This document shows, piece by piece, positions 24,298 to 54,996 of a stretch of DNA of 60,565 bases. Each line of letters starts with the position of its first letter. Position 1 is the first letter of the stretch. The stretch covers positions 1 to 60,565 of the IMG/VR virus record IMGVR_UViG_3300003690_000008. One strand, 5' to 3'. The notes under the pieces are model-generated. The model was given only the letters and a program-made list of their open reading frames with translations, had not been told where the DNA came from and made no database searches. Both the position numbers and the translations under genes were made by a program. Source of the stretch: a virus (taxonomy: Duplodnaviria > Caudoviricetes).

Positions 24298-24316
24298 TGC
24301 GATCACTTGCCTCCCT

Positions 24317-25415: not shown

Positions 25416-25422
25416 AATACCC

Positions 25423-33893: not shown

Positions 33894-33920
33894 TAAACCA
33901 ACAACGAAATGGTGATGAGC

Positions 33921-33957: not shown

Positions 33958-33971
33958 ATAAAGACAAAAAC

Positions 33972-35233: not shown

Positions 35234-35236
35234 CAA

Positions 35237-36240: not shown

Positions 36241-36252
36241 AAAGGTGATATC

Positions 36253-36738: not shown

Positions 36739-36752
36739 AAGAATGAAATAGT

Positions 36753-37982
36753 GTGCCTACTGACTTCACAATTCGAGTTGTCGAAGAAGCATCTCGCCGC
36801 ACATCTGGCGGCGGAGTTACCGGTCCAAGCGGATCGTCTGCACCACGAGGCCCAGCCAAGTCTCCCAAGTCTGCACCGGAAGAGGCAGCCCAGAAGAAAC
36901 AAAGTAAAGACGTAGCGGATCAGTTCCGTGAAATTACAAAACTCGGAAGGGACCTTGCTGGAGCACTTGGCCTTGGTGGATTTCTAGGGGTTATCACTAA
37001 GGTTACGGGTGCCGTCAAAACTCTCGTTGCGGTCATAACTGCCGCAAGTGCTGTTGAGGGAGCAAGAGCAGGGTTCAAAGGCGTTGGGGGGGCGGCACGG
37101 GTTGGGGCCAGAATCTTAGGTGCCGCCATAGACAGGGGCTCTTTTAGGGGAGTAGGCTCTGCGGCTGGCGGAGTTGGTAGAACTGGAACATCCCTGGCAG
37201 TAAGAGGTGGCGGCACTGCCGTTGCGGCCAGAGCCGGAACAGCCTTAGCTGTAAGAGGTGGGGCTGCTGCTGGTGGCACTGCTGTCAGCGGCACTGCTGC
37301 TACCGGTGTTGCCGTCGCTGGAGGAGGGGCTGCTGCTGGCTCTCTTTCTCTCCCTGTCATCGGCATTGCGATAGCTGCATTCATAGCAGCCACAACAGCA
37401 GCCGTAGTTGCACTCAAGTTATTGACAGGTGCCTTAGACAAGGCTGCTGCACCTTTAGTAGGGCTATCTCCAGAATTATCCGCCGCCGCAGCACATGCCG
37501 ATGTCGCCAGGCTAATGCGCGATATAGATCGAGCGGAAAGGCTAGGGCCAGGTCTCGCTGAAGTACAGAACACAAGAGTGAAGTTTGAGTTGATGATGTC
37601 GGAGGTCTGGACTCAAATCCTGGAGAACATGTTAAGACTGATAGAACCGATGTTGCCGTTTATCGAGCTTGCGGTTCAAACAATGACAGCTATCGTTAGT
37701 CTTTTTGGTTTATTAGTGGACACTGCGTTTGCAATCCTCAAGGCACTCTCGCCGCTGTGGCTAATACAAAAGATATTAGATGCTCTTTCTACGGATCACA
37801 AAAAGCTCTTTCTGACCATAAGGGAATTTCACGCACAATATCTTGATGATGCTGATACAAAGCTAGATACGTTTACCGATCAGTTTATGAAACTTGTTCC
37901 ACTTAAAAAGGGAATGCCTCCCATTGACGGAAGAAACACACGCGGAGAGGCAAACCTACCACCAAAAGACCCAGAAGAGTAG
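36753..37982 (+). CDS. putative short tape-measure protein
   Basis: Ala/Gly-rich with hydrophobic helices; follows the tube gene. Confidence 0.55.
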   Translation: MPTDFTIRVVEEASRRTSGGGVTGPSGSSAPRGPAKSPKSAPEEAAQKKQSKDVADQFREITKLGRDLAGALGLGGFLGVITKVTGAVKTLVAVITAASAVEGARAGFKGVGGAARVGARILGAAIDRGSFRGVGSAAGGVGRTGTSLAVRGGGTAVAARAGTALAVRGGAAAGGTAVSGTAATGVAVAGGGAAAGSLSLPVIGIAIAAFIAATTAAVVALKLLTGALDKAAAPLVGLSPELSAAAAHADVARLMRDIDRAERLGPGLAEVQNTRVKFELMMSEVWTQILENMLRLIEPMLPFIELAVQTMTAIVSLFGLLVDTAFAILKALSPLWLIQKILDALSTDHKKLFLTIREFHAQYLDDADTKLDTFTDQFMKLVPLKKGMPPIDGRNTRGEANLPPKDPEE

Positions 37983-37984
37983 GA

Positions 37985-39802: not shown

Positions 39803-39827
39803 TCAATCTCCAAAGAAAGGATGAGTC

Positions 39828-40597
39828 ATGGACGAGAAAACCGACAACAATGACCTCATGCAGATAATCACCCCCAGCGGGTCGGTTGATGTCAGCATGC
39901 TAAAGGTAATGATCGCAATCGACCGGCTTTTTTCCGAGCACGACCTCATCAACGCAAAGAACAACATAAGCCCCGAATTCTTAGTGGCCTTGGCTGGTGA
40001 GATATCGTCGATTGGTGAATGCGAGTGCTCTCCGACTGCCGCCTGGAAAGCATGGATGGATGCCGACAAGGTGCTGCTAGAGGAAGACGACAGCCTTACT
40101 GTCATCACCGTGCATGGAATCAAGATTGACCTGATAATGGCTAGGTTGGAAATGGAAGAAATAGAAGATGCCCATACTGTATCCAGCAAAAAATTCCAAC
40201 CTAGCGAAGAGTTTGCCGAGAGTCTTGTTAGGTGGATAAAGTCAAAGGGAGTTGACACCTGCACGCCAAGCGAGGCATATCACATCTGGAGGACGGCGTT
40301 CGTCAAGCTTGAGACGTTAAAAAAAAATACCGTGTCGAGTCCGATATAAGCTATTGGTACGGCATAAACGGATTTAGATTGCAAGCCGACGAAAGAGCAG
40401 CGCTATTCGGAAACATAAAGAGAGTCCAGGCACAGCAGCAGGTAATAGATGACGATTACGACATATCCGACTACGACGGCGTGTACAGGTTATTCATGCT
40501 TGCTTACGGTAAGAAGTCTTATGCTGAAAAGATGAAGCTGAAGGCATTAGAGGAGCACGTCAAGAGGAATTGTAACGTCGTTTCAGGTAAGAGATAA
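39828..40597 (+). CDS. tail-assembly-chaperone-like pair (39828-40349 plus -1 frameshift extension to 40597)
   Basis: TTA AAA AAA AAT at 40317-40328; the -1 frame reads YRVESDISYWYG... into ORF 40379-40597. Confidence 0.65.
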
Positions 40598-40600: not shown

Positions 40601-43600
40601 ATGCCGCAAATTGTAGACAACTTCGGTAACCCGATAGCAAGCGAACGTCCCGTTACGCTTGACTACAAGCCAGGCATACGCCACATCTGGGGACGCAATC
40701 CCCGAGACTTGCCGCTGTTTAGTTTTCAAACTATTCAGTACATGATGATCGACCAGACTATCCGCCTTGGCCTTGCCATGCGAATGGCCCCGATATGTTC
40801 GGCAGAATTTGCCTATCGAGAGCAAGGGGAGTGGAAGTCCGGTGTCAAAGCAGACAACCCGGAAGTTGCTGATTTCGTCGAGCGTCAGCTAGAGCGGATA
40901 TGGCGTCACGACGTAGCAAAGATACTGGCAGCGCAAGTCTGGGGGTGGTCCGCTGGCGAGGTGATGTATAAGGTCGTCGGCAACCGCATTGAGTTCGACA
41001 CGATCCTAGAACGACACTCACGAGATGTTAGGACAGTGAGATGGAAGGGCCGTGTTGTCGGCGTTGAAGTACTCCGCCTGCAAGAAGGAAAAGATAAAGT
41101 CCGCCTCGGCCTGCCAGGGAAAGCGTTCTGGCATAGCTTTGATACGGAGGCCGGAAAGGATTACGGACGGAGTGTACTTATAGGCCCGTATTCAGCATGG
41201 GCCGACAAATGGCTGGAAGGTGGTGCCCTTGACGTTAGGCGTCTCTACATGCACGCCGATGCCTACGCTGGCCGGAGGATCGGATATCCGCCGGGAACCA
41301 CGGAGATACCAGGGGAAGGCGACGTTCCCAACCGCGACGTAGCCAGGGAAATGGCCGAGCAATACAAGTCCGGCGACGTGATGGTTTACCCGCAGGTGTG
41401 GGACGAGGACGGCAAGCCGCTGTGGGATATTCAAGACGCAAAGGTTCACAGCAACCCGTCGCATATTCTCCAATACCCAAAAGACCTGGACATTGAAATG
41501 CTTCGCGGGATGGAGATACCGGACGAAGTTGTCACGAGCATGGGTGGCGGCGGCGCTTGGCAGGGAAAGCAAGTTCCGATGCAAGCGTTTTACAACGGCC
41601 TAAACCTATGGGGCAATGCGGTCGTCAAGGTCGTGGTCACGCAAATCCTAGAGCCTCTTGTTAAATGGAACTTTGGCGAGGACGAGGCATTCGAGGCCAA
41701 CATGAAGCCTTTGGATATTCAGGCCATGGAATCGCAGGGGGCGAATCAGCAGCAGCAAGGTCCGATGGGGCCAGCCACCGGAGGATTCGGGCAAGAGCAG
41801 CCAGGAGGATTCGGGCAAGAGCAGCCAGGAGGATTCGGGCAAGAGGCCGGAGGGTTCGGCCAGGAAGCCATCGGCCAGGAGCAGAACGGAAATGGAGTTC
41901 CATTCCCCGGAGCAAGTCAGAGGTTCGCACTGAATCCAGTGAGGGCCGTTGGTGAGGGCGTTCTAAGCGCGGCTCAATTAGTTCAGGCTGCCAATGAAGT
42001 TATCGAAAGGAACACTAACGGCCATACCGAAGCACGATATGATCCCATCCCACAGCCGGCGATTCGGATAGAACACGTCGCCGTTGCCGTGGAGCAGAAT
42101 GACTCCACTAAGCCGGGCGGAGAAGTCCACGAGTACAGCAGCTTGATTTGTCCTCTGCCGCTAGAGTTGGCTATGTCGATCAGGGAGATGTCATCTCGAA
42201 TTGACGGAAGTGATTTTACCGACGAAGGCACTGAGGACGAGCCGCACATAACATTGAAGTATGGATTGCATTGTGAAACCGATGAAGCGGTGCGTCACGT
42301 ACTAAAGGACGTGGAGCCGATCTTAGTCATGTTTGGCAAGACATCTATATTCGAGTGCGACGAATGCGATGTAGTCAAGGTTGAAGTAGAGAGCCAGTCA
42401 TTAGATGACATCAACAAGCTGATCAGCGATGCCATCCCAAATACAGACACATATCCAGAGTATATACCTCACGCGACTGTAGCTCGTGTATTACGCGACA
42501 CCGGTTATAAGTACGAAGACATGGATGACCTGGAAGGAAAAACAGCAACCATAAGTCAAGTTACCTTCAGTGGAAAAACCGGAATCACCAGCGTGATTGA
42601 ATTGAGCGGCAGGACTCGTATGGCAGTTGAAGATTGGAACTTCAACAAGGGTCCACGCGGCGGTTCGGTTTGGACCAACGTCAAGACTGGAGAGATACGT
42701 CGTCAAAAAGAAAACCCAGGCGGAAAGCGAAGAAAAAAAAAACCAGAAAGCACATCCAATAGAAGACAGAAAAAGGAACCGACAGCCAATGCAACCACAA
42801 AACTAATGGATGAATTGGCATCGGGACTGGAAGAATCTCTGGGGTTTCCAAGAGACATGGCTATTCAGTACATCAAGCAAATGAGCGGAGCGGGCCGACA
42901 TGTGCTAAAGGGAACAAGTAAAGGAATGACCACCAAGCAAGCTCTATTTGGTTATGCAAATGCAATAGGAATGCCATCGCAGGATTTTGTGCGCGAGGGT
43001 GGTGTGTATGATTTCGAGGAAGGATATGCGGATAGCATTGTAGACGACGATATGCACAAAGAACTTTCTGAATGGACAGACGCTCTTAACGAGAAAGAAA
43101 GAGATGCGGTAATGGCTTACGCGACAGGGTCGCCGATAAATAAATCCTTACGCGAGTGCCCCGACGAAATGGACTGTCTTGATGAGGAAGAGAAGGATGT
43201 TCATAGCCATCTCGAAAAAATTATCGACAAAGCTAATGGGCTATCAGAACCAATGTTAGCATGGCGAGGCGTTGGCGGAAAACAAGCCGCTCTTGTGGTT
43301 GACCAGATGAAGAAGGCGATATCCGAAGGCAAGACAATGCACATGAACGGCATTCAGTCGTTTTCGGTTGATCCTACTGTAGCGGCGTTATATGTCGACG
43401 ATGCCCAAGAGGGGGTGGTGTTTGAGGTAATGTGCAAAAGCGGTGCTTACGTTGCGAGCATGAGTTTCGACCCTAATGAACGCGAGCTATTGCATGGTCA
43501 CGGCCAGCGTTATCGCCCGTTGAGAGTATTAAAGGATGTGGCATTTAGCAGTGGAAATCAGAAAAGTCTAGTTACAGTCATCCAAATGGAGCAGCTATGA
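40601..43600 (+). CDS. portal protein (DUF935/Mu gp29-like) fused to 2H phosphoesterase, GPRGG tag and ADP-ribosyltransferase
   Basis: WGWSAGEVMY, YGRSVL, ILEPLVKWNFG (portal); PHITL and PHATV (2H); WRG, QSFS and ERE (R-S-E ART). Confidence 0.85.
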   Translation: MPQIVDNFGNPIASERPVTLDYKPGIRHIWGRNPRDLPLFSFQTIQYMMIDQTIRLGLAMRMAPICSAEFAYREQGEWKSGVKADNPEVADFVERQLERIWRHDVAKILAAQVWGWSAGEVMYKVVGNRIEFDTILERHSRDVRTVRWKGRVVGVEVLRLQEGKDKVRLGLPGKAFWHSFDTEAGKDYGRSVLIGPYSAWADKWLEGGALDVRRLYMHADAYAGRRIGYPPGTTEIPGEGDVPNRDVAREMAEQYKSGDVMVYPQVWDEDGKPLWDIQDAKVHSNPSHILQYPKDLDIEMLRGMEIPDEVVTSMGGGGAWQGKQVPMQAFYNGLNLWGNAVVKVVVTQILEPLVKWNFGEDEAFEANMKPLDIQAMESQGANQQQQGPMGPATGGFGQEQPGGFGQEQPGGFGQEAGGFGQEAIGQEQNGNGVPFPGASQRFALNPVRAVGEGVLSAAQLVQAANEVIERNTNGHTEARYDPIPQPAIRIEHVAVAVEQNDSTKPGGEVHEYSSLICPLPLELAMSIREMSSRIDGSDFTDEGTEDEPHITLKYGLHCETDEAVRHVLKDVEPILVMFGKTSIFECDECDVVKVEVESQSLDDINKLISDAIPNTDTYPEYIPHATVARVLRDTGYKYEDMDDLEGKTATISQVTFSGKTGITSVIELSGRTRMAVEDWNFNKGPRGGSVWTNVKTGEIRRQKENPGGKRRKKKPESTSNRRQKKEPTANATTKLMDELASGLEESLGFPRDMAIQYIKQMSGAGRHVLKGTSKGMTTKQALFGYANAIGMPSQDFVREGGVYDFEEGYADSIVDDDMHKELSEWTDALNEKERDAVMAYATGSPINKSLRECPDEMDCLDEEEKDVHSHLEKIIDKANGLSEPMLAWRGVGGKQAALVVDQMKKAISEGKTMHMNGIQSFSVDPTVAALYVDDAQEGVVFEVMCKSGAYVASMSFDPNERELLHGHGQRYRPLRVLKDVAFSSGNQKSLVTVIQMEQL
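41780..41884 (+). repeat. coding tandem repeat GGFGQEQP (24-bp unit, 2 perfect + 3 degenerate)
   Basis: ggaggattcgggcaagagcagcca repeated in the portal linker. Confidence 0.9.
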
Positions 43601-44835
43601 GGGGTGACAGATTTAATGCCGAAGGCGACTCGATTTCCATCGAGGACAATCCGCCCGCAGTCGCTGCGGTCCAAGGCCGCATGGCAGCCAGGAAAGGAGA
43701 GCCGTCGTCCGCTAATCCTTACAAAGATAAACTAGATGATAGAACTATTATGTGGCACGCTGGGTGGAAGTCGGGGCAAATTAAAACAATGGCAGTCGAA
43801 GACTGGAACTTCACTCGCGGTCCTCGCGGCGGCTCAGTCTGGAGCAACGTAAGAACCGGAGAGGTCAGACATCAGAAAGAAAACCCAGGCGGCAACGGGT
43901 CCATTAAGAGTGCCGATGACCCCGAGGAGCCAAAGCGACCGCCAGTAAAAGACAAGCCTCGATCAACTAAACGTCGGGCTGTACGAGGCGAGTTATTTGA
44001 TGCAACGGTCCAAGGAAAAGGAAAGACCAAGAAGATATTTCTCGCAAACGGAGAGCCAGCACCCAGCCACATCCAAGAGGTTGCCGCTGCCATTCAACCG
44101 GGCTGGACCAACATAAAGATTACAGTGGACCCAGAGTCGGATTTAGTTGCCACTGGGGTTGATAGCAAGGGCCGCACGGTTCCGGTTTACACCACCAAGT
44201 TCAAAGCACGCAATGCGGAAAGCAAACGATCTCGCGTATCAGAGTTGATGCAAAAGAAGTCAGCGATCTTAGAGCAGATCGACAAGGCAACACAAAACAG
44301 TAATCCCGCCATCAAGACATCAGCCGACATTCTTTCGTTGATTGCATCCACTGGATTGAGGACCGGAAGCACTCGGGATACAAAGGCCGATAAACAGGCG
44401 TATGGAGCGACCACTCTCTTGGGCCGTCATGTATTCAGCACCCCACGCGGCGTGAGGCTGAAGTTCACAGGCAAGAAGGGCGTTCCACGTAGCGTGCTTG
44501 TAAAAGACGAAAAACTTGCTAACATGTTGTTAAAGAGAAAGCGAGCCGCCGGAAAGAAGGGAAGATTATTTTCGGTCAGCGCCGGCACGGTACAGAAGTA
44601 TGCCAGGAGCCTTGATGGTGGGAAGTTTATGCCGAAGGACTTCCGCACGATGCTAGGTACGGAATCAGCGGTCAATCTTTTGTCGTCCGCAAGGCCGGCT
44701 AGGGACGAACAGGACTACAGAAAGAAAGTAAATGCCATCGGAGATAAGGTTGCGAAGATACTCGGCAACACCAGAAAAGTTGCACTGCAAAGTTACATCG
44801 ACCCTACGGTATTCGGAAAACTGATGCCAACATGA
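43597..44835 (+). CDS. RMF-like leader + GPRGG tag + DNA topoisomerase IB
   Basis: ATGVDSKGR, GLRTG, YGATTL..RH, FTGKKG, KDFRT, LGNT, SYIDP catalytic set. Confidence 0.9.
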   Translation: MRGDRFNAEGDSISIEDNPPAVAAVQGRMAARKGEPSSANPYKDKLDDRTIMWHAGWKSGQIKTMAVEDWNFTRGPRGGSVWSNVRTGEVRHQKENPGGNGSIKSADDPEEPKRPPVKDKPRSTKRRAVRGELFDATVQGKGKTKKIFLANGEPAPSHIQEVAAAIQPGWTNIKITVDPESDLVATGVDSKGRTVPVYTTKFKARNAESKRSRVSELMQKKSAILEQIDKATQNSNPAIKTSADILSLIASTGLRTGSTRDTKADKQAYGATTLLGRHVFSTPRGVRLKFTGKKGVPRSVLVKDEKLANMLLKRKRAAGKKGRLFSVSAGTVQKYARSLDGGKFMPKDFRTMLGTESAVNLLSSARPARDEQDYRKKVNAIGDKVAKILGNTRKVALQSYIDPTVFGKLMPT

Positions 44836-45044
44836 CTCACGACAAAAACGACCCGTTCGGCACTGGCTCCCCCGTTGTCTTTGTCGGTCCCAAGAAGGAC
44901 TGGCGAGACAATCCCGATGTAGCCAACGAGACCGACCCAGACGATGAACTGTTAAGTAAAACTCCCGAGGACGTAGTTGCCATCCTTGGATTCGACCCCC
45001 TGGATGCCGACACAGGGGACGAAGATGATGGTAGCAACATCTAA
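44832..45044 (+). CDS. 70-aa acidic protein (possible Topo IB partner)
   Basis: ATGA-coupled to the topo gene; DDELLSKTPEDVVAILGFDP. Confidence 0.6.
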   Translation: MTHDKNDPFGTGSPVVFVGPKKDWRDNPDVANETDPDDELLSKTPEDVVAILGFDPLDADTGDEDDGSNI

Positions 45045-48000
45045 TATCGCCGACTCAATGTGTGCCGAAATAGATTCGGGAGACTGGCACCCATTTCTCG
45101 ATCAGCATTCCCATACCCGCTGGAAGAACGTCCGCACCGGTGAGATACAGCGTCTCGCCGCCGAGGATTGGTCATCATTCCGAGGTCCTCGCGGCGGCAC
45201 CGGCTGGAAGAATGTTCGCACGGGTAAGGTAAAATACCAGAGAGATCGTCCTGGTGGAAATCGCCCAAAAAGTAAATCTCAACCAGAAAAACGAACACCG
45301 GCAAAATTCACAGGCATAGTCGATGAGTTGAATATACGCGGAAAGGAGAATATTCGATTCAGGAAGGGATTCACAACAAAAGACTATATCGGCGGAATGA
45401 AAGCCGCTGAACGAAGAGGCATTCTCGGCGAGCTACGCAAGCGAGACCTATGGCTAGTCAGTCACCTACTCGTCGACAGTGAAGGAGGGTATCACGGAAC
45501 CAGCGCTGACATACCCACAAGCGACATATCGCACTTCAAGCATCCAGACGAGGTAATTGATAGGGTTGATGAATTCCAGAACGATAACTTATCGGCCATT
45601 GCCGGAAAAATTGGCATGTCGGCTCACGTCCTGAGGGACCAAGTAAACGAAAGTGTGAAAGAGGCCCTCAAGGACGCCTTGCCGTTCATTAGGGTTGAGC
45701 TTCCTGTTGTCAGTAAGATTTTACAATCAGGGAGATTCTTGAGTCAGCACGAAATGGATTTAGCGGCTGGAGAGGACTTCATGGCAGAGGTCAGGAGCGA
45801 TGTGGAGTTGGAAGTAATGGGTGTACCGAGGGGCACCCTGGCTTCATATAGGCCGATATACGGCTACCTATCAAGCCTTCGTCCCGGCGACCCCGGCCCC
45901 AGCGGTCACGCCGACACGACAAGCTATGGTGATGTCGTGGTTGAACTCAAAGAGAATCTTAAAGACCGGTCCACGGTTACATTTCAAGATTCCATGGGTG
46001 CCATGGATACGGGAAACTTCATGGCTACACCAGTAAGCAAGCCCAACATTAGGAGCGTAGATTTAGGTGGAGACGAACTGCCGTACAAAGTTAGAAACAA
46101 AACCGTTGACGGCGACGGATACACCGAGGCGCAAATCCACAACGGTATCTCACTCAAAGACATAGAGAAGGTGTGGTTCGAGTCGTCACCTGATGCCGGC
46201 CTTGCGAAAGAAATGAAAAAGGCCGGGGTGTCGTGGGGCGTTGTCGGAAAGCCTGTCAGTATGGCAGCGGAGGACTGGTCATCCTTCCGTGGCCCTCGCG
46301 GCGGCACCGGCTGGAAGAACGTGCGAACAGGTAAAGTGAAATACCAGAAGGATCGACCTGGAGGCCGAAACGGAAGCGTCGAGAAAACCGGCATTGCCAC
46401 GCAGAGAAAAGAGAGAGTGATCCCAGACATAACCAAGTCCACCAAAAAGGAATACGCCGGGGACATTGATGACTACCTAGGTGGAGAGACGGGACCACTT
46501 GGGTACAAGGAAATGGTGGAGAAATTTGGAGATGAAGCAGTCACGAAGGCATACGCGGACGTGAGAGACAGAGACAAAGAATGGGACAGATACATACGCA
46601 GGGAACTATCGCTAGGGAGGACAACAGAAGACGATGCACGTAAGATCGGGTACTTCAACGCAAGCGGCAGAGCAGTAGAGCCCTTGCCGAAGTACCTGTA
46701 TCACGTCACGACAGCATCAGACTCAATCCTTCGAGATGGACTCAAAACTAGAGACGAGCTAGGACAGAGATCGGGCAAAGGACTCGGGGCCGGGCCAGAC
46801 GATACCATCAGCTTTACAGATAGCCCGAAGATAGCGTCGGGTATTCACCGCGCGATGATTGAAGCCAGGAGCGTTGCTCGTGGAGAGATCAGCGTTCAGG
46901 ATATGCTTGACTACGCCAAACGAGGAGATGGAGTCGGCAAGCCGTGGTTACGTAGACTCGTTCAGAGGTGGGACCCTGAATGGAATGACGGTGACAAGCT
47001 CCCGTTCGGGTTGCAGTTAATAGTAGACGGTCGAGAGCGTGGCACTGGAATGGGGCATCCTCCCCGAGACGGAACCGGATGGGAGCCAGTGGGCGATGGC
47101 ATGTGGGACTGGACACGCAAGCTAGACCCAGATGAAGACAGGGATGAAAGATTTGATTTCTACAAAAGGTTCGCATTTATCCGCGAGGATGCTGGCGGGC
47201 CGCTCGATCCGCTGTTCATGTCCACTGACGTAGGCGCACTGGCCGAGAGTGAACCAGATCAAATACACATCATGCAGTTCAAGCCCAAGCCAAACGCGCA
47301 GGGGTACAAGGTTAGTGCGTTAGGCGAATGGCGGACATGGACCGGTGATGCAGTGGATGTCGTTAGAGGGGACATTGAGAAAACCGGGATCGCCAAAGTC
47401 ATGTCATTCAGGTGGCCTGACGATTGCTACCTCGACTCACCTGTCCGCATGGCAGCCGAGGACTGGCAAGCATTCCGTGGACCACGCGGCGGCACCGGTT
47501 GGAAGAATGTTCGCACAGGTGAGGTTAAATACCAAAAGGATAGGCCAGGTGGTAAAGAGAAACAAGAAGAAGCCAGCGACGAAACGCAATCCAGAAAAAG
47601 GACATCGCGGACCCCCGATGAAGTTCACAAAGAACTACAGTGGGCCATGCATGAGCAACTGAATGCCATCACGGAGTACGGTGCATCTAAAGAGAGAATC
47701 GCTGAGCTATCAAAAATAATAAATAGCATACCACTGCTAGAGATCGAGCTAGAGGAGTCACGCGCGATCAACACTAAATATGGCAATACGATAGTCAATG
47801 GTAACGACAAACTGGAAGCCAGCGACATAAAGCAACTCCAGGAGATCGGAATCAAGTTGTTCGCAAGTAGGGACGAGCAAGACGAATACACAAAGACAGC
47901 CACCCCCAAAGAGTTAATTGGCGCTCCCTTAATGTCTATATCGCCAACCGGAGAAAGAAGCGCAAACCACGAGGCCAGGGTAGAGGTAAAGAAGAAGGTC

Positions 48001-49848: not shown

Positions 49849-50912
49849 ATTCCGAAAAGTTTTTAGCCACCAGTGATTCGATTGTCGTCAAGGACAATCC
49901 ACACATGGCAGCCATGAAGCAAGGCCAGCAATCTGCCCAGCAGGGTGAGCCTTTGGAAATGAATCCATATAAAGAACACAAGGACGCCAGGGCCGTAATG
50001 TGGCTCGTTGGGTGGAAACGCGGTTCCATGCAAACAATGTCTGTCGAGGATTGGAATTTCACCCGAGGCCCTCGCGGAGGAAACATCTGGAGTAATGTTC
50101 GTACTGGTGAAGTGCGTCGTCAAAAAGAGAACCCCGGAGGAAAAAGACGGAACAGTAAACAGAAAGAACGCGACAAGCGACGAAAAAAGAAGCAGAAAAT
50201 GCCAGCGCCTAGCAAGCTATATAAAGTGAAAACATTTGGAGACGTTGATTCTGATGTGCTTCAGACTTATCTAGATGGACTAGACGCCATACCGCCAGAG
50301 ATACGCCATCGAATCGAAGGGAAATTCAAGACAAAGGTTTGGGTTGGCTCTGGTGGCGTTCTCAACATGAAACCACAATGGAGGGGTGAGGTTCCGCGAG
50401 GGCAAAAGGGGAGACGGTCATACGATGCGGTAAGCGCTATCTACGACCCAAATCTAGGTGCAAATGAGATTGTACTATCGTCCAAGATTTTTTATGGTGG
50501 CCAGTGGCGTCCTCAGTCCACTAAGCAGATGCTACATGGTGTTCATCACGAATACGGCCACGCGATAGATTACAGTCGTGGTCGTCTGACGGAACTGTGG
50601 AGCGAAACAGAGGAATTTAGAGACGCCTGGGAAAAAGATGTGGCTGATCTTTTAGAGGATACCGGGAGTGTCGTTGGTAGCGGCGGCACTGGCGAGGAGC
50701 ATAGCCTAACGGGCGATGCGGCTGATCTATCGTATTACATTCAGATACAGCACGGCCAACCGTCAGCAGCGATAGGCGCGAGTGAGGCGTTTGCTGAATC
50801 TGTGGCATTTATACTAGGAGAGCCAAGCAATAGGGAGTTTCCTGGTAGATTCAAGAGGTCGGTTGGTTTTGCCGTGGAAGTCCTGGATAAAATAATGAAA
50901 GGCGAGGCATGA
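49845..50912 (+). CDS. RMF-like leader + tag + zincin metallopeptidase
   Basis: HHEYGHAID and SEAFAE. Confidence 0.85.
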   Translation: MNSEKFLATSDSIVVKDNPHMAAMKQGQQSAQQGEPLEMNPYKEHKDARAVMWLVGWKRGSMQTMSVEDWNFTRGPRGGNIWSNVRTGEVRRQKENPGGKRRNSKQKERDKRRKKKQKMPAPSKLYKVKTFGDVDSDVLQTYLDGLDAIPPEIRHRIEGKFKTKVWVGSGGVLNMKPQWRGEVPRGQKGRRSYDAVSAIYDPNLGANEIVLSSKIFYGGQWRPQSTKQMLHGVHHEYGHAIDYSRGRLTELWSETEEFRDAWEKDVADLLEDTGSVVGSGGTGEEHSLTGDAADLSYYIQIQHGQPSAAIGASEAFAESVAFILGEPSNREFPGRFKRSVGFAVEVLDKIMKGEA

Positions 50913-51115
50913 TACACATTACGCTACAAGACGACAGCATGCTTGTTTCTTCCCGCCACGATTTACCAGGCGGCGCGATAGGAGATTCGTTTTTGACCGT
51001 CACTCCCGGACAGCACATTGGCGATTTGTCCTACGAACAATTGAGAGAACTTGGTAGCGGGCAGCATGACATAGACTTTATAGGGAGCGACTCTAAAGAA
51101 AAGCCGGGAGAATAA
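50909..51115 (+). CDS. 68-aa hypothetical protein (possible peptidase partner)
   Basis: ATGA-coupled ORF. Confidence 0.55.
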   Translation: MIHITLQDDSMLVSSRHDLPGGAIGDSFLTVTPGQHIGDLSYEQLRELGSGQHDIDFIGSDSKEKPGE

Positions 51116-51116
51116 A

Positions 51117-52043
51117 ATGCCTGACACAATTGAAATCAACATAGACCACGACCTAGCACACGCCGACTGGCCAAAGCGCACGCCAGATACCATGGAGGAC
51201 CTTGAAAGAGGTATCGAGGAGGAGAAGGAGGAAGCCAGAAAAAAGAAAACAGAAAAACCAACCAACGGTTCTACGACAACAATGTCCGTCGAGGATTGGA
51301 GTTTCACCATAGGCCCGCGAGGCGGGAGCATTTGGACTAATGTTCGCACTGGAGAAGTTCGCCGCCAAAAAGAAAACCCAGGAGGAAAAAGAAGGAAGAA
51401 AAAAGATGATAAGGAAGGCACGAAGGTTGCCTCAAACAAGAAGTTTATATCAGCGAGACTTGTCAATTTATTTGCAAGCACCCAGAGCAACAAAAACGCG
51501 AAACGCGCATCCGATGATACTATTAACAAAATGTCACCACGGATGATTAAGGGAGTAGCCGAGAACATCGGAGGTGTTTTTGTGTTCGATACGATGAATG
51601 AAGTGCATAAACAGTGGAAAATCCTGTCCGGCAAAACCACCTTGCCGGACGGTGGAATAGCCGCGTTTGTGTCGTCTAGCGAAGGCGAGAGGATGAGCAT
51701 GTATGTAAACGGTGGAGATGATGGGATATGGGCGCACGAATACACACACATGATAGATTACGGAAGCTCGTTTAGTGGAACCGAAGAGTGGAAAAAGATA
51801 TGGCAGGAATGGAGGCGAAACACGAAGTTAGCTGATGAGTATGACGATAGACTAGAGGATGATCCAGATGCAGACTTTGATTTCGATCCGTTTTCTGACT
51901 TAGGTCCATCGAGGTACGCAACAACAAATCCTGCCGAAGCATTCGCAGAATTCGGCAGGATTGTGATTGCGAGCCCAGAGACAGCCAAGGCTCAGCACCC
52001 AACTGCCTGGAAATTCTGGAAACAAGCCGGGTTGATACAATGA
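51117..52043 (+). CDS. leader + tag + zincin metallopeptidase
   Basis: AHEYTHMID; SRYATTNPAEAFAE. Confidence 0.85.
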   Translation: MPDTIEINIDHDLAHADWPKRTPDTMEDLERGIEEEKEEARKKKTEKPTNGSTTTMSVEDWSFTIGPRGGSIWTNVRTGEVRRQKENPGGKRRKKKDDKEGTKVASNKKFISARLVNLFASTQSNKNAKRASDDTINKMSPRMIKGVAENIGGVFVFDTMNEVHKQWKILSGKTTLPDGGIAAFVSSSEGERMSMYVNGGDDGIWAHEYTHMIDYGSSFSGTEEWKKIWQEWRRNTKLADEYDDRLEDDPDADFDFDPFSDLGPSRYATTNPAEAFAEFGRIVIASPETAKAQHPTAWKFWKQAGLIQ

Positions 52044-52777
52044 TCGCACAAACACTATCAGCCGAAGACTGGAATTACACGCGAGGTCCGCGCGGTGGCA
52101 ACATCTGGACGAATGTGAAAACTGGAGAGATACGGAGGCAAAAGGAAAACCCAGGCGGGAAAGAGAAGGGAAGAGTAAAAGAAGATAGCAGCGGCCAAGC
52201 CAAAGCGAGAGCGTTTAAGAAATACGACGATCCCAGATACGTGGCGGCCAGAGAAGAGTGGTTCGGCAGTCTAAGCGACGATGAAATGAATGCTTTTCGT
52301 GCATGGAGCGGGAGCGTGGACATGGCTACTGAGATCAGGAATTATCAAGCCGGTCTACCTGGCAGACATTCGCAGCATGTTAAAAGCGTCACCGAGACCA
52401 TAGCCAAAGCCCTCGATAGGGCACCTAAGTTAGCCACGCCCGTTTACAGGGGACTCAACTTCCGCAGCAGCGAAGATCGCAAGGAATTCATAGCCTTGAT
52501 GTTAAAGAACAAGGGAATGGCTACACGTGGATTTACGTCGACTTCCAGGTCACGGGAGATTGCTAGTAAATTCTCGGATGACTATTACGGTGTTGTGTTA
52601 ATAATCCGCTCCAAGTCTGGCGTAAGCATATCTTTTGAAGACATCGCAATCCTAAATGAAGATGAAGTTCTACTGAGAGAGAAAACGAAATTGAGGTATG
52701 ATTTCAAAACGAAAATCATGGGAGAGCCGAAGTTCGGAAAAAGCGGAACGATATACATCGGGATGACCGAAGTCTAG
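52040..52777 (+). CDS. tag + R-S-E ADP-ribosyltransferase
   Basis: VYRGL, GFTSTS, NEDEVLL. Confidence 0.9.
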   Translation: MIAQTLSAEDWNYTRGPRGGNIWTNVKTGEIRRQKENPGGKEKGRVKEDSSGQAKARAFKKYDDPRYVAAREEWFGSLSDDEMNAFRAWSGSVDMATEIRNYQAGLPGRHSQHVKSVTETIAKALDRAPKLATPVYRGLNFRSSEDRKEFIALMLKNKGMATRGFTSTSRSREIASKFSDDYYGVVLIIRSKSGVSISFEDIAILNEDEVLLREKTKLRYDFKTKIMGEPKFGKSGTIYIGMTEV

Positions 52778-52809
52778 GCCGCGAAACAACAAACCAAGCG
52801 AGATGCAAG

Positions 52810-53208
52810 ATGACAAGCCAACCAAACAGAATGATTGACACAGGCATCGACGAGGCCATGGTAACCTTTGACATGAGTAAAGAAGTAAGCGACTCACGGC
52901 ACTCGCTGCCAGAGATATTCGACCATCCAATCAATGTTGAGTTGGAAGATGGAACGGTGATCCATGCCGATGGACGCAAGAGCCATGATCAAGTCGACGA
53001 AGAAAGCCTGACAGACGACGACCGTAAACTAGGAAAGGAAGCTAGGCAGCAGGCTCTCGACGGCCACAACCCAGCGTCATGGGTAGCCGACGAGGACAAA
53101 TGGGAGAAGGCAAAAGACATTGTGAAAAGCGGCAAAAAAAAGTACAATGAGCCTTATGCCGTGATTACTCACATTTACCTGGAAAAACTTGGAGGCAAGA
53201 TCAAATGA
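52810..53208 (+). CDS. hypothetical protein
   Basis: Acidic N-half; C-terminal NPASWVADEDKWEKAK...YAVITHIY...GG. Confidence 0.6.
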   Translation: MTSQPNRMIDTGIDEAMVTFDMSKEVSDSRHSLPEIFDHPINVELEDGTVIHADGRKSHDQVDEESLTDDDRKLGKEARQQALDGHNPASWVADEDKWEKAKDIVKSGKKKYNEPYAVITHIYLEKLGGKIK

Positions 53209-53963
53209 CCGTCCAAACACTCGCCGCCACAAGAATCGAAGCGTGCCCGACTGTTTTTGCCAGGGCCGGAGGAATGCGGCTATCGACCGACTACGGTGAA
53301 GTCACTTACCCGGAAGCAAGGTCGCTTATCGAAAACGGGTGCGAGATGCTTTCCGTGGAAAACGAAGATGGCATCACGGTTGGTGCCATGATTCTGGATG
53401 ACAAGTGTTCTGGCGATTGGTCGTTCGTGAGGATGGACGCTTCCAGTTGGACGCAATCGAAAGGCCCCCGTGGAGGGTCCATCTGGACGAATAGCAAAAC
53501 CGGGGCCACCAGGCACTCGAAAGAGAATCCGGGCGGGAAAGGCAAAACGCCAAAGGCGGAAAAAGGCAGTTCTGCTGACAAAAAAGGCAGCGGCGTGAAT
53601 CACGCGATCTCCAAGATCGCAAAAGACATCCTTCTGATCCCGACCCTCAAAGAGAGAAAGAGCGATAGCCTGGATTTCCATGAGGTCGCGGTTTGGACAG
53701 TCAGGGATGCGATGCAGAAGGCATTCAATGCTGGCCAAGGGAAGAATTCCAAACCGACGAAGAACACTGTTTCTATGTTCGAGAATATGGTTAAGAAGTA
53801 CATGGACATCGATACACTGAAAACACAAAAAGCTGGCCATCTCGATTTCCATGAGGTTGGCGTGGAGTCTGTTAGGATTGCGCTAGAAAAGGCATACAAT
53901 GCTGGCAAAGCGCGCCGGGAGCACCCAGAGCTACACCGGCGGAGTAAAACGAGACCCCAATAG
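53205..53963 (+). CDS. divergent tag + two DUF6900-like domains
   Basis: IPTLKERKSDSLDFHEVAVW...AFNAG and IDTLKTQKAGHLDFHEVGVE...AYNAG. Confidence 0.7.
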   Translation: MTVQTLAATRIEACPTVFARAGGMRLSTDYGEVTYPEARSLIENGCEMLSVENEDGITVGAMILDDKCSGDWSFVRMDASSWTQSKGPRGGSIWTNSKTGATRHSKENPGGKGKTPKAEKGSSADKKGSGVNHAISKIAKDILLIPTLKERKSDSLDFHEVAVWTVRDAMQKAFNAGQGKNSKPTKNTVSMFENMVKKYMDIDTLKTQKAGHLDFHEVGVESVRIALEKAYNAGKARREHPELHRRSKTRPQ

Positions 53964-53979
53964 CGTATTCGGTTAAGAA

Positions 53980-54996
53980 ATGCCAGACGCGGCCAAACGA
54001 TCCACCGACCTGATTATTGGTCGCGGCCTGATAACGGCTGAAGCGATCGCGCAAAAGCTACGCATCAGACTGGCCCACCGGCTGGCCCGAAATTTCAGCC
54101 GGATGTCGTTCCACCAGTTACTCGGTATGGCCCGGCAGGTTCTAGGCGAGTTCGAGCCACTTCTGGCTACCGCAATGGCCGATACGGAAATCGCGGCCTG
54201 GGTTCGCGGCCTAGGGGTCATCACCAACCGCACCCCCCAGCGGATTCTGGCCCTATTCACTTCCGGGTTTCCCCCCCTAGTCCCTCCAGGGCTCGTTCTG
54301 CCGCCTGACCTCACGATAGGGGACGCAGGGCCTATTGTGGTGTTTCCACGCCTCCAGGAGGCCACACAGGCCCTCGTGGACCGGAATATCGTCACTAGGC
54401 CCCAGTTCGACTCAATGACCCGAGAAGCTCAGGGCCGGGCCTTCACTGTGGCTGGCCAAACCAACGCCGAGGTGATCGGCAGAATCCGAGATGTGCTGGC
54501 CGAGGAAATCACCGAGGGGACCAGTTTCGGTAAGTTCAAAAAACGAATGCGAGAGGAGCTAGATGTAAGCTGGGTAGGACCCGGCCATTTGTCGAATGTT
54601 TACCGCACCAACACACAAGCGGCGTTTGCCGATGGCCAAGAGGTTCTTTTCAACAATCCAATAATCCGAGAGGCATTTCCATACGCTAGATATACTGCGA
54701 TTGACGACGGCAGGGTAAGAGATAATCATTTAGCGCTCGAAACACTTGGGCTGTCTGGCACAAATATATACAGGATGGATGATCCTGTGTGGGATATTTT
54801 CACGCCGCCGTGGGACTACATGTGCAGGTGCTCCAAGACAGCCATGACGATATTACAGGCTGCCAAAGCTGGCGTCCGAGAAGCCAAGCGATGGAACCGA
54901 ACAGGCCAACCACCAGACGATCCAGAGTTCAGAATTGACGACATCCCATTCAGACCGACAAACAACTTTGTTGGTCCACGTCGACGAGTTGCGTAG
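53980..54996 (+). CDS. MuF (Mu gpF/SPP1 gp7-like) minor head protein
   Basis: RAFTVAG, VYRTNTQAA, YTAIDDGRVR..H, PPWDYMCRC. Confidence 0.9.
   Translation: MPDAAKRSTDLIIGRGLITAEAIAQKLRIRLAHRLARNFSRMSFHQLLGMARQVLGEFEPLLATAMADTEIAAWVRGLGVITNRTPQRILALFTSGFPPLVPPGLVLPPDLTIGDAGPIVVFPRLQEATQALVDRNIVTRPQFDSMTREAQGRAFTVAGQTNAEVIGRIRDVLAEEITEGTSFGKFKKRMREELDVSWVGPGHLSNVYRTNTQAAFADGQEVLFNNPIIREAFPYARYTAIDDGRVRDNHLALETLGLSGTNIYRMDDPVWDIFTPPWDYMCRCSKTAMTILQAAKAGVREAKRWNRTGQPPDDPEFRIDDIPFRPTNNFVGPRRRVA

Follow-up and report, generated by a model that had tools for sequence, protein, structure and literature searches.

In this virus, as in many uncultured phages and archaeal viruses, nearly all enzymes encoded from the portal gene to MuF are preceded by a 35-residue module with a predicted WW-like fold, here called the tag. 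The array studied here contains ten copies. The tag constitutes a new mini-domain family in a system of a known kind. Selection maintains it as a peptide module, and its cargo is diverse, with cassettes that are shuffled among viral proteins. We infer a docking role, with packaging and ejection: proteins carried in the virus head probably share the tag as a docking label.

Tag copies in the window

We made an HMM from the ten copies and ran it in six frames against the whole window, that is, the entire 60,565-nt stretch of DNA analysed. Every copy was recovered at 62–76 bits (E 1e-20 to 5e-25), and the ten start coordinates given earlier by a reading of the sequence only are all correct (Table 1). 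The alignment of the ten tags contains 13 invariant columns, namely W6, G11, P12, R13, G14, G15, W18, N20, T23, G24, P33, G34 and G35. The motif had been said to occur nowhere else in the window, which holds for full copies but overlooks one degenerate eleventh copy. The sole additional HMM match (45115–45153, model positions 16–28, 7.6 bits, E about 1e-3) is partial, forms part of this degenerate copy and adjoins copy 3 on its upstream side, and all other rows of the scan had E>1.

Among the 45 pairs of window tags, pS is 0.54–1.01, pN is 0.03–0.43 and pN/pS is 0.05–0.60. Synonymous sites are near saturation while pN is low, so selection acts on the peptide, as had been proposed from the mostly synonymous differences between copies. 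The basic tail behind the tag is lineage-specific. The net charge of the 20 aa after the tag is +3 to +11 in seven of the ten window copies and −1 to +1 in the remaining three, and the same stretch behind 311 tags has a mean net charge of −0.119 per residue; the tail described as usually basic is therefore true of most window copies but is not conserved across the family.

Table 1. Positions of the array genes and of the tag copies in the window
Feature	Position	Strand	Length	Score (bits)	Description
Portal fusion protein	40601..43600	+	999 aa		portal domain, Gly/Pro/Gln-rich linker, 2H phosphoesterase, tag 1, ART
Topo IB protein	43597..44835	+	412 aa		RMF-like leader, tag 2, Topo IB
Small acidic ORF	44832..45044	+	70 aa		no tag; no Pfam match
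Polyvalent protein	45025..49848	+	1607 aa from ATG; 1623 aa from TTG at 44977		degenerate tag, tag 3, DUF3626-like, tag 4, uncharacterised domain, tag 5, ART, tag 6, ART
HExxH (zincin-like) protein	49845..50912	+	355 aa		RMF-like leader, tag 7, HExxH domain
Small ORF	50909..51115	+	68 aa		no tag; no Pfam match
HExxH (zincin-like) protein	51117..52043	+	308 aa		tag 8, then HExxH domain
ART protein	52040..52777	+	245 aa		tag 9 (starts at residue 6), then ART
ORF	52810..53208	+	132 aa		no tag; no family match
DUF6900 protein	53205..53963	+	252 aa		leader, tag 10, 2x DUF6900
MuF-like minor head protein	53980..54996	+	338 aa		without tag or fused effector; last of array
Tag copy 1	42620..42724	+	35 aa	72.9	residues 674–708 of portal fusion protein
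Tag copy 2	43789..43893	+	35 aa	76.1
Degenerate eleventh tag	45073..45153	+			DW...RWKNVRTGEIQ; first W and WKNVRTGEIQ half kept, GPRGG absent
Tag copy 3	45154..45258	+	35 aa	67.2
Tag copy 4	46261..46365	+	35 aa	69.8
Tag copy 5	47449..47553	+	35 aa	70.6
Tag copy 6	48907..49011	+	35 aa	76.1
Tag copy 7	50037..50141	+	35 aa	73.1
Tag copy 8	51282..51386	+	35 aa	73.5
Tag copy 9	52055..52159	+	35 aa	72.8
Tag copy 10	53433..53537	+	35 aa	62.3	most diverged

Genes and cargo of the array

The majority of the window cargo is encoded by separate, translationally coupled, tagged genes and is not fused to portal or MuF; the start of the Topo IB gene overlaps the stop of the portal fusion gene by 4 nt. In the portal fusion protein, whose linker has GGFGQEQP repeats, Pfam matches Portal_Mu (residues 46–201, E 7e-10), the 2H phosphoesterase family 2_5_RNA_ligase2 (526–636, E 4.4e-8) and ADPrib_exo_Tox (820–992, E 1.3e-9). 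The MuF protein matches Phage_Mu_F (169–285, E 2.1e-12) and phrog_220 (minor head protein and DNA pilot, E 6.5e-36). These matches bear out the portal, the MuF and the ART after copy 1 as labelled from the sequence only. Pfam likewise agrees with the labels of Topo IB (Topoisom_I at 200–396, E 3e-18), of the ART at the C-terminus of the 1623-aa ORF (E 2.1e-8) and of the two DUF6900 stretches (E 3.6e-34), while the cargo at 47554–48906, also called an ART, is homologous to a tag-bearing ART of viral contig G004 (E 1e-18). The RMF-like leaders match RMF above the Pfam cut-off, at residues 23–61 of the Topo IB protein (E 1.9e-7) and 22–61 of the 355-aa protein (E 1.7e-7).

Other labels stood in part. 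The DUF3626-like cargo gives a Pfam match of E 0.0035, below the cut-off, and resembles gene 2 of mycobacteriophages L5/D29 (tblastn, E 2e-8 to 9e-6). The putative ART at 52160–52774 matches ART (E 1.5e-4) and ADPrib_exo_Tox (E 1.4e-3), both below their cut-offs, and for the cargo at 46366–47448, labelled as H-type ART-like, we obtained a weak Atlas lead only (score 0.88, PARP on 16% of members). In the two supposed zincins the HExxH motif is seen by eye, as HEYGH in the 355-aa protein and HEYTH in the 308-aa protein, but the Pfam matches are weak (E 0.21 in the former, Peptidase_M90 at E 0.091 in the latter). The tag is absent from the three array ORFs without a family match. One of these, the 70-aa acidic ORF, is 45% identical over 58 aa to L004:6766-7278 (E 1e-9) and follows Topo IB in contig G004 as it does in the window.

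The tag family beyond the window

The tag, which had not been recognised as a described family, indeed matches no Pfam family at E<=10. Out of 1.84 billion (1.84e9), its profile matches 266 representative proteins at E<=1e-3, and the stricter E<=1e-10 leaves 59; the representative P0001 (1607 aa) is the window's polyvalent protein. In this search, suggested by the sequence-only reading, the tag is found in many large multidomain viral proteins with varied cargo. Most are 700–4000 aa long, with 2–6 copies placed between unrelated domains, and these are phage polyvalent proteins. The family consensus is W-x2-Y-x-GPRGG-x-G-W-x-N-x2-TGE-V-x-Y-Q-x3-PG, and the usual layout, like beads on a string, is tag, low-complexity linker and cargo.

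We then took a detailed census of the 143 non-window proteins among the best 150 of the 266 matches. The tag is present in 142 of them, at least two tags in 101 and six at most, with a median tag-to-tag spacing of 323 aa. Tags favour the N-terminal end: no more than 30 aa separate the first tag from the N-terminus in 45 of the 142 proteins, and the last tag from the C-terminus in three. The N-terminal position expected in front of diverse enzymes is seen as a bias, and tags occur at other sites too. The 366 inter-tag segments gave 119 BLAST clusters, with 94 singletons, and architectures recur in varying order, e.g., c1-T-c3-T-c2 and T-c5-T-c1. Among 27 top matches, Pfam identified ART-PolyVal in eight proteins, Portal_Mu in three, RelA_SpoT in two and 19 more families in one protein each. 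A tblastn search (E<=10) of 50,697 GenBank phage records found no canonical tag; these records yielded degenerate copies only, in HVTV-1 gene 115.

Genome context

The tag DNA pattern alone recovered 15 independent viral contigs with 35 tags in total. A portal was detected in 13 of the contigs and MuF in seven. All 35 tags have the same orientation as the portal and, in so far as the two genes were detected, follow it and precede MuF. These contigs agree with the expectation that the tag is confined to portal-MuF loci; one cellular copy departs from it, in a solitary 140-aa protein of Haloarcula salina adjoining an integrase; Phage_portal (PF04860), the sole portal family tried on that genome, had no match. 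The tag lies between portal and fused cargo in the window and in P0090, P0092, P0111, P0114, P0025, P0056 and L013, and ahead of MuF itself in cluster c4 (13 proteins). The complete genome G011 has a single tag, which makes up the final ~45 residues of its portal fusion and has no cargo after it.

The Topo IB of contig G004 is 46% identical to that of the window (E 6e-68). The window protein bears the WW-like tag, and at the same site G004 has an unrelated helical module of ~36 aa, which also replaces the tag on the MuF-fused cargo of that contig. This swap on an orthologous enzyme suggests that the role of the tag is independent of the cargo.

Predicted fold

According to the AlphaFold2 models, the tag is a small domain that probably folds by itself into a WW-like three-stranded beta-sheet, in which the invariant GPRGG loop joins the first two strands. 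Two models from different lead sequences have mean pLDDT of 79.4 and 78.7 (core about 90), and in both of them strands at 11–15, 21–25 and 31–33 form the sheet. The Foldseek list consists mostly of WW domains (TM to target 0.65–0.71, rmsd 1.5 A over 26–28 residues). FBP11 WW1 ranks first when either model is aligned with the full PDB (Z 3.4 and 3.2, rmsd 1.4–1.5 A, 30/30 residues, identity up to 30%), and WW domains fill 12 of the 16 rows with Z>=2 in the search with the second model. The absolute statistics of all these searches are weak (Foldseek E>=0.44, Z<=3.4), which is usual for a module of 35 residues.

WW domains (Pfam PF00397; FBP11/PRPF40A WW1, PDB 2dyf) are also about 35 residues long, and both predicted models resemble their three-stranded antiparallel sheet more closely than any other structure matched. 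They have a characteristic signature pattern, which the tag fits in its spacing, W-(11)-aromatic-x-N-(7)-aromatic with Pro near the C-terminus, and both modules occur singly, in tandem or scattered within multidomain proteins. Unlike WW domains, the tag has no Pfam match at E<=10, and its profile-to-PDB matches to WW chains (E 0.4–1.7) are not significant. The second signature Trp of WW domains is Tyr in 232 of 246 tag instances and R, H or Y in the window; moreover, the GPRGG loop is invariant in the tag, whereas the equivalent WW loop is variable. Tag carriers are bacterial and archaeal viruses, and the likeness to eukaryotic WW domains is a predicted structural one rather than established homology. 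The sequence-only reading mentioned neither this WW-like fold nor the link of GPRGG to the adaptor domain of chloroviruses treated below.

Comparison with known systems

Short transferable labels, such as the T4 capsid targeting sequence of Alt and the internal proteins and the cargo-loading peptides of encapsulins, bring unrelated proteins into capsids. All of them are short, unfolded and confined to one terminus, and in T4 the prohead protease cuts the label off. The logic proposed for the tag is the same, but the tag is a predicted folded domain, often internal and repeated, without sequence likeness to them.

The PBCV-specific basic adaptor domain (PF08789), described for chloroviruses, is a 38-position mini-domain that has the GPRGG-aromatic core in common with the tag. 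Its model positions 7–19 match RPVFRGPRGGYFY in P0022, and the tag profile, when aligned by hhalign with the 12 distinct sequences of this repeat in P0022 (34 occurrences), gave E 3e-4 over 20 columns, with a probability of only 39.6%. PF08789 had no match at E<=10 to the tags or to the six-frame window, and the tag, unlike PF08789, has an N-terminal Trp strand and a TGE...YQ...PG half. According to PMC3281028, enzymes of the dsDNA virus PBCV-1 that bear this adaptor domain are virion-packaged and DNA-associated; the kinases A278L and A282L, which carry it, are packaged at about 400–530 copies per virion and remain with the ejected DNA.

Phage polyvalent proteins and portal- or MuF-fused effectors such as MuF toxins string disparate enzymes in one polypeptide or operon of the head module, adjacent to portal and MuF (Iyer et al. 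2017, PMC5512222), as here, and they share ART, 2H, zincin-like, Topo IB and DUF3626 enzymes with the window; their packaging and injection are predicted in the same source. Fusions of ART and 2H to portal or MuF have been read as head-packaged, injected effectors (PMC5512222, PMC9503650). The window differs from such fusions in its separate tagged genes. The tag is not among the features described for polyvalent proteins in the accessible part of PMC5512222, nor is it matched by any Pfam LPD family.

Proposed role of the tag

At a rough probability of 0.45, the tag is a cargo-independent docking module. It leads or spaces the cassettes of tag, low-complexity linker and cargo that make up the effector proteins encoded between portal and MuF in the window virus, many uncultured tailed phages and haloarchaeal viruses. 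Each carrier protein would dock through its tag in one shared internal complex near the portal of the procapsid, and proteins held there would consequently be packaged together and leave the head along with the DNA. The binding surface may consist of the GPRGG loop together with the sheet's aromatic face; candidate receptors are MuF, the Pro/Gly/Met-rich tail after the portal domain, the inside of the capsid, DNA and other tags. Genome context, the N-terminal bias and the tag swap on Topo IB together argue for such an adaptor, and the capsid-loading or ejection signal proposed in the sequence-only reading is plausible in this light. Also in favour are the selection on the peptide, the breadth of the family, its diverse and shuffled cargo, the untagged state of the three array ORFs that match no family and the reproducible predicted fold, with the packaged PBCV-1 kinases and the published portal and MuF effector fusions as precedents. 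Several observations run against docking: the tags at portal and MuF fusions, where a loading signal seems redundant because both proteins are already virion parts, the cargo-less tag of G011, the helical module of G004, the Haloarcula salina copy, the lineage-specific basic tail, the weak fold statistics and the lack of a canonical tag in the GenBank phage records.

Alternatively, the tag could mark a cut or separation point that releases single enzymes in the head or host; for example, a phage protease might cut the exposed GPR-GG loop, and free-standing proteins would lose an N-terminal tag like a propeptide. Tags do lie exactly at domain boundaries, including portal-cargo and MuF-cargo junctions that would need release from a virion anchor, and conservation is highest in a Pro-Arg loop flanked by Gly. 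Moreover, the array encodes two HExxH proteins, and zincins are predicted to process polyvalent proteins (Iyer et al., PMC5512222). However, the conserved part is a predicted folded domain rather than an extended site, the residues immediately flanking it show no conservation, and no prohead protease was identified in the window, which covers only about 66% of the genome. Processing also explains neither the tandem tags of P0031, P0084 and P0051 nor the extreme C-terminal tag of the G011 portal fusion, and we regard it as unlikely.

Similarly doubtful is a role after injection, in which the tag would bind a common hub, either the entering phage DNA or a host machine, for example the ribosome or RNA polymerase, so that effectors co-localise, and packaging itself would depend on something other than the tag. 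The DNA-associated PBCV-1 proteins (PMC3281028), the strongly basic tail after most window tags and the RMF-like (ribosome modulation factor) leaders are in line with such an address, as is the finding that tags are less acidic than the remainder of their proteins (−0.023 vs −0.076 net charge per residue, Wilcoxon p 2.6e-25). The family is nevertheless not basic overall, with a median net charge of −1 per tag and the negative downstream mean given above; the portal, which often bears the first tag, is not ejected; and a single host protein target is unlikely because the hosts range from bacteria to haloarchaea.

Finally, an inert, fast-folding spacer that separates neighbours or aids folding and spreads by cassette duplication, with no binding, is very improbable: the beads-on-a-string layout with low-complexity linkers would suit it, but the surface positions G-P-R-G-G, T-G-E and Q are invariant or nearly so among distant viruses under strong purifying selection, and neither the tag that starts at residue 6 of a single-domain protein nor the one that ends the G011 portal would be needed as a spacer. 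Duplication, which this explanation invokes, did contribute to the growth of the array, as the "tag-ART then RMF-tag" segment at 42620–43893 is paralogous to 48907–50141 (amino acid identity 42% and 61%).

The tag copies in the window and selection on the peptide

The sequence-only reading had placed ten copies of the tag, a 35-residue mini-domain, in the window and had claimed that selection acts on the peptide. Both claims were confirmed. Translation at these sites gives ten clearly related 35-residue peptides, and their alignment contains 13 invariant columns (W6, G11-P12-R13-G14-G15, W18, N20, T23-G24 and P33-G34-G35). In a six-frame scan of the entire window, an HMM built from the ten copies scored every one of them with 62–76 bits (E of 1e-20 or better), and its sole further match was a partial one immediately upstream of copy 3. 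Together with the residues preceding it, this match makes up a degenerate eleventh copy (DW...RWKNVRTGEIQ), from which GPRGG has been lost. Five of the ten full copies are internal to large proteins (see table).

The pairwise nucleotide identity among the copies is 48–83%, while pS ranges from 0.54 to 1.01 and pN from 0.03 to 0.43 over the 45 pairs. The copies are thus old, and purifying selection acts on the peptide, with pS near saturation and pN low. Chance or a DNA-level repeat is ruled out by the same nucleotide identity, the near-saturated synonymous sites and the HMM E values (≤1e-20). As for the basic tail that was said to follow the motif, it is strongly basic behind most copies of the window, but it is lineage-specific and is not kept across the family.

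Positions of tags, accompanying modules and neighbouring genes
Sequence	Feature	Position
Window	DNA-modification cluster	20110-27032
Window	Head genes preceding the portal	32796-40597
Window	Major head protein	32796-33893
Window	Portal fusion (portal-2H-tag-ART)	40601-43600
Window	Low-complexity linker	41700-41900
Window	Tag 1	residue 674 of portal fusion
Window	Duplicated cassette, first	42620-43893
Window	Duplicated cassette, second	48907-50141
Window	RMF-like leader, Topo IB protein	43663-43779
Window	RMF-like leader, HExxH protein	49908-50027
Window	Untagged ORF, 70 aa, no family match	44832-45044
Window	Untagged ORF, 68 aa, no family match	50909-51115
Window	Untagged ORF, 132 aa, no family match	52810-53208
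Window	1607-aa protein	45025-49848
Window	Degenerate eleventh copy	45073-45153
Window	Partial HMM match	45115-45153
Window	Tag 3, behind degenerate copy	residue 44 of 1607-aa protein
Window	Three further full tags	residues 413, 809, 1295 of 1607-aa protein
Window	ART cargo assigned through G004	47554-48906
Window	MuF	53980-54996
Window	846-aa ORF	55007-57547
G004 (L004)	Helical module, five copies	767-877, 1847-1957, 5677-5787, 8507-8617, 9892-10002
L024	Helical module, one copy	1936-2046
Haloarcula salina scaffold (L031)	Gene with canonical tag, minus strand	3677-4099
HVTV-1 (L033)	Degenerate tags of gene 115	12051-12167, 13980-14093
CpcG (PDB 8iml_4)	Borderline tag-profile match	residues 183-220

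Gene array and cargo

The genes of the array, which runs from the portal fusion to MuF, are packed into a tight operon in which neighbours overlap by 4 nt (ATGA). The portal fusion contains a phosphoesterase (2H), a tag and an ADP-ribosyltransferase-type cargo (ART), and it is followed by RMF-like-tag-TopoIB, the first untagged ORF and the 1607-aa protein, in which four full tags and the degenerate one occur. The second half consists of RMF-like-tag-HExxH, the second untagged ORF, tag-HExxH, tag-ART, the third untagged ORF, tag-2xDUF6900 and MuF. Among the cargo labels of the sequence-only reading, two ARTs, Topo IB and DUF6900 were confirmed by Pfam, whereas DUF3626 and the third ART stayed below the cut-offs. 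Pfam also confirmed the portal, 2H and MuF. One cargo was assigned as an ART through homology with a protein of G004, a viral contig related to the window (E 1e-18). The label “H-type ART-like” has a weak Atlas lead as its sole basis, and the zincin labels go back to HExxH motifs spotted by eye.

An old segmental duplication is present in the array, in which two paralogous cassettes have the order “tag-ART, stop, RMF-like-tag”. Their tag+ART parts are 42% identical and their RMF+tag parts 61%, and the ARTs of both terminate in ...VIQMEQL. Part of the array's growth thus came about by duplication. The RMF-like leaders open the tagged Topo IB and HExxH proteins and exceed the Pfam cut-off for RMF (ribosome modulation factor) with 31.5 and 31.6 against 27.9 bits, which is unexpected on presumed virion cargo. 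Moreover, the first untagged ORF, which is acidic, is kept directly behind Topo IB in G004 (45% identity, E 1e-9). The three untagged ORFs might not be destined for packaging and might serve the adjoining enzymes as partners, inhibitors or chaperones.

A new family of mini-domains

None of the ten tags was matched by a Pfam family at E≤10, in a search in which the HMMER filters let few matches above about 0.1 through. When 1.84 billion representative proteins were searched with the ten-copy profile, 266 of them matched at E≤1e-3, including 59 with E≤1e-10. The best 150 of the 266 include six of the window's own proteins and one eukaryote-like protein (P0022), and we analyzed the other 143. The tag was present in 142 of them, with at least two tags in 101 and a maximum of six; the median distance between their tags is 323 aa. 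The family consensus is W-x-x-Y-x-GPRGG-x-G-W-x-N-x-x-TGE-V-x-Y-Q-x-x-x-PG, with variable flanks, and the tags show an N-terminal bias (45 against 3 C-terminal, of 142 proteins).

The segments between tags, 366 in number, fell into 119 BLAST clusters including 94 singletons, and their orders are shuffled. Among the 27 top matches, Pfam recognized ART-PolyVal (8), Portal_Mu (3) and RelA_SpoT (2), together with single cases of MuF, DUF3626, LPD1, sigma-70, GNAT, poly(A) polymerase and others. In a second protein sample, Portal_Mu was found ahead of the first tag, MuF was flanked by two tags, and the order InPase-tag-TopoIB occurred. According to a cluster look-up, the ten top matches are all unnamed metagenomic proteins. 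The canonical tag had no tblastn match at E≤10 in the GenBank phage collection, and no description of it was found in the full-text literature among the matches listed. The tag is a new mini-domain family, not in Pfam, and it gives a known effector system a modular grammar.

Genomic context of the tags

We scanned viral and prokaryote contigs for the tag at the DNA level with a degenerate pattern, which detected 15 stretches in 2.9 million viral contigs against 2 in 32 million prokaryote genome contigs. One of these two, a Gemmatimonadetes match, is probably due to chance (8.8 bits). The 15 viral records hold 35 tags. A portal was detected in 13 records (6 Portal_Mu and 7 Phage_portal); of the remaining two, one is a fragment of 4 kb and one a contig starting within a tag. 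MuF was detected in seven. The sequence-only reading had named confinement to portal-MuF loci as what would support it, and in all 15 records the tags are on the portal strand, downstream of the portal and upstream of MuF, where these were found.

About 43% of the tags (133 of 311) belong to strongly acidic proteins. This, together with matches in Haloarcula salina and HVTV-1, suggests that many tag carriers are haloarchaeal viruses. Across 185,579 species genomes a canonical tag turned up just once, on a scaffold of Haloarcula salina, where a solitary, acidic protein of 140 aa has it at its C-terminal end. An ORF that resembles a tyrosine recombinase (integrase) by eye lies at a distance of about 2 kb, and the Phage_portal model, the one portal family tried, had no match in this genome. 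HVTV-1 (KC117377) is a cultured haloarchaeal virus whose gene 115 (“zeta toxin”, 1313 aa) lies directly behind gene 114 (“head assembly”). Gene 115 carries two degenerate tags of 18–20 bits, which resemble the degenerate copy of the window in being without GPRGG. A canonical copy was found in no cultured virus, and gene 115 of HVTV-1/HVTV-2 comes closest.

Predicted fold and comparison with WW domains

AlphaFold2 was run twice on aligned natural tags, once on 34 sequences headed by a copy from the window and once on 33 headed by a distant tag (from locus L007). The mean pLDDT was 79.4 and 78.7, with about 90 in the core, and strands were predicted at 11–15, 21–25 and, for a short third one, from 31 (31–33 in the first model and 31–32 in the second). 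The predicted tag thus has in common with the WW domain (PF00397) a three-stranded antiparallel sheet of about 35–40 residues. WW domains dominated the Foldseek results against the PDB, with TM to target of 0.65–0.71 and rmsd of 1.5 Å over 26–28 residues, none of them significant (E≥0.44). In an independent alignment to 48,161 PDB representatives, FBP11 WW1 (2dyf_A) ranked first for both models (Z of 3.4 and 3.2, rmsd 1.4–1.5 Å, 30 of 30 residues, identity up to 30%), and for the second model 16 rows reached Z≥2, of which 12 contain WW domains.

The sequence profile compared with the PDB gave WW chains at non-significant E values of 0.4–1.7, and the tags were not matched by the family profile PF00397. 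WW domains are defined by two signature Trp residues about 20–22 residues apart, with a Pro shortly after the second. In the tag the first Trp is invariant, but the second position differs: 22 residues past the first Trp there is Tyr in 232 of 246 instances, and R/H/Y, mostly R/H, in the window. A Pro follows at +5 from this position, and the residue pattern fits the WW spacing. We therefore describe the predicted fold as WW-like with fair confidence. A borderline match of the tag profile (E 0.017) was found in CpcG, with the sequence SPWERYAGPKFFVGWKDTVEGYTVFGPPKPG, in the C-terminal part of this phycobilisome rod-core linker; going by this match, the structure of a related mini-domain might already have been solved there.

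Relation to known effector systems and to the PBCV basic adaptor

The polyvalent and portal-/MuF-associated effector system is itself already known. Phage polyvalent proteins combine at least two disparate activities in one polypeptide and are encoded among head genes of the portal-terminase type (Iyer et al. 2017). In the window, the portal fusion unites portal, 2H and ART, the 1607-aa protein unites a DUF3626-like domain, an unknown domain and two ARTs, and portal and MuF flank the array. The tag-bearing multidomain proteins are phage-type polyvalent proteins in the sense of Iyer et al. 2017 (PMC5512222), a paper that is not known to mention a module like the tag. MuF toxins have the effector C-terminal to MuF, whereas the window MuF (338 aa) has Phage_Mu_F at 169–285 and nothing behind it; G004, unlike the window, has a MuF-ART fusion. 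The capsid targeting sequence of the T4 type is a short peptide that is confined to the N-terminus and cut off by the prohead protease, and it differs in this from the tag with its internal copies.

P0022 (3223 aa) was picked up by the tag profile via 34 weak partial matches. It contains 34 tandem GPRGG repeats, which Pfam assigns to the PBCV-specific basic adaptor domain (PF08789) and which separate an N-terminal region from a UDP-glucose pyrophosphorylase domain. The tag shares the core motif of PF08789, GPRGG and then aromatics. Positions 7–19 of the PF08789 model align with RPVFRGPRGGYFY of P0022, and hhalign of the tag profile against the P0022 repeats gave an E of 3e-4 and a probability of 39.6% over 20 columns. 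Since PF08789 (cut-off 20.4 bits) had no match to the tags or the six-frame window at E≤10, the tag is, on sequence grounds, not a member of this family, and the two may be distantly related. The link through GPRGG matters because the PBCV-1 kinases A278L and A282L, which carry the PF08789 domain, are virion proteins (about 400 and 530 copies per virion, respectively) and remain bound to the ejected DNA (PMC3281028).

A second module in G004 and linkers behind the portal

The Topo IB of G004 is 46% identical to that of the window (E 6e-68) but is led by another module, which is helical and basic, about 36 aa long and unrelated to the tag (consensus ..EL...AEAAAAG+KRVAS.L.TLAK+AGAS). Six copies occur in the portal-to-MuF array of G004, beside two WW-like tags: two in the portal fusion, one each at the N-termini of Topo IB and another ORF, one within yet another ORF, and one between MuF and the fused ART. 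The helical module fills slots that are held by the WW-like tag in the window. It is absent from the window, the other loci examined and the 150 representative proteins; a DNA pattern scan of viral contigs returned G004 as the sole match, and Pfam gave no meaningful match. That two unrelated short modules occupy the same slot speaks for a generic handling function, and the exchanged leader of the G004 Topo IB is the most telling sign of a cargo-independent role.

A low-complexity linker, rich in Pro/Gly/Met or Gly/Gln, lies behind the portal domain and ahead of the first tag or cargo. It was found in the window, in six representative proteins matched by the tag profile (P0090, P0092, P0111, P0114, P0025 and P0056) and at three loci (L011, L013 and L004), with sequences such as GGFGQEQP x4 in the window, PGGAPGGMPGGLPGG in G004 and PGQPMPGQPMGG in P0025. 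WW domains have Pro-rich peptides as ligands, and those of class III bind Pro-Gly-Met motifs, which is a lead; the Pro/Gly/Met-rich linkers ahead of the first tag in portal fusions show co-occurrence with the tag and no more. A Pro-rich stretch is also present in the window MuF and its G004 homologue (FPPLVPPGLVLPP and LPSDPVPP). A Pro-rich WW ligand in MuF was dropped as a general explanation, with nothing comparable in the other five MuF-like proteins examined. A complex prediction of the tag with residues 1–480 of the window portal, run without controls, scored 0.00 and gave no answer.

Proposed role of the tag

The unrelated enzymes that are tagged, the shuffled cassettes, the N-terminal bias and the three family-less ORFs left untagged in the window together suggest that the tag has the same role whatever the cargo is. 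Portal and MuF fusions are interpreted in the literature as packaged, injected effectors (PMC5512222, PMC9503650). Because of this reading and the strict head-module context, our preferred reading, with a probability of about 0.45, is a docking adaptor by which cargo would be collected inside the procapsid close to the portal. Several findings speak against a simple loading signal. First, the first tag is often directly behind the portal domain, after a Pro/Gly/Met-rich linker. Second, a tag is often ahead of MuF itself. Third, the sole tag of the complete genome G011 ends the portal fusion protein, and the solitary Haloarcula salina copy is outside a portal context (one portal family tried). 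The tag could instead be one half of a mutual docking system, such as tag with tag or tag with Pro-rich linker, and the tags located at the portal, at MuF and in G011 fit such mutual docking better.

A more sweeping form of the docking adaptor is doubtful. It would make the tag a universal, transferable label that docks cargo near the portal for procapsid loading and then injection, in bacterial and archaeal tailed viruses alike, and that alone defines the injected-effector repertoire; interchangeable labels would serve elsewhere, and the chlorovirus domain would be a distant relative doing the same job. Candidate receptors would then include other tags and the Pro/Gly/Met-rich tail that follows the portal domain, and the helical G004 module would be an example of another lineage's interchangeable label. 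Less likely still is a processing or breakaway site at domain junctions, although it also fits the tags behind the portal, ahead of MuF and at the end of the G011 portal fusion. We consider it improbable to much the same degree that the tag is a target-side address which binds DNA or a host hub; the basic tail was dropped as a DNA-binding part of the tag because it is not conserved family-wide. An inert spacer is very improbable, and even if the tag were only that or a processing site, it would still help, as a new mini-domain family, to divide polyvalent proteins into their domains.

Effectors that are packaged in the head and injected are regarded as a first line of phage counter-defence and, to our knowledge, they are recognised at present only via portal/MuF fusion or homology to known enzymes. 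A docking adaptor that acts as a conserved cargo label would make it possible to list, from sequence, the proteins that uncultured viruses inject, among them family-less cargo such as the singleton clusters (94, from 366 segments), and would open a direct experimental route to how phages select the proteins that enter the capsid. With the tag as a candidate tool, foreign proteins might also be brought into phage heads. The family spans bacterial phages and, apparently, haloarchaeal viruses and may reach chloroviruses via the GPRGG adaptor, so the tag may be an old solution.

Other genes of the window

The gene order of the window is unusual, as the major head protein, a neck protein and a tape-measure-like ORF all precede the portal. 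A terminase was not found within the window, which is an entire IMG/VR viral record of 60,565 bases with an estimated completeness of about 66%. Behind MuF there is an 846-aa ORF without known family. The upstream DNA-modification cluster comprises a double GT4 glycosyltransferase (698 aa), a Dam-like methyltransferase and an N6/N4 methylase.
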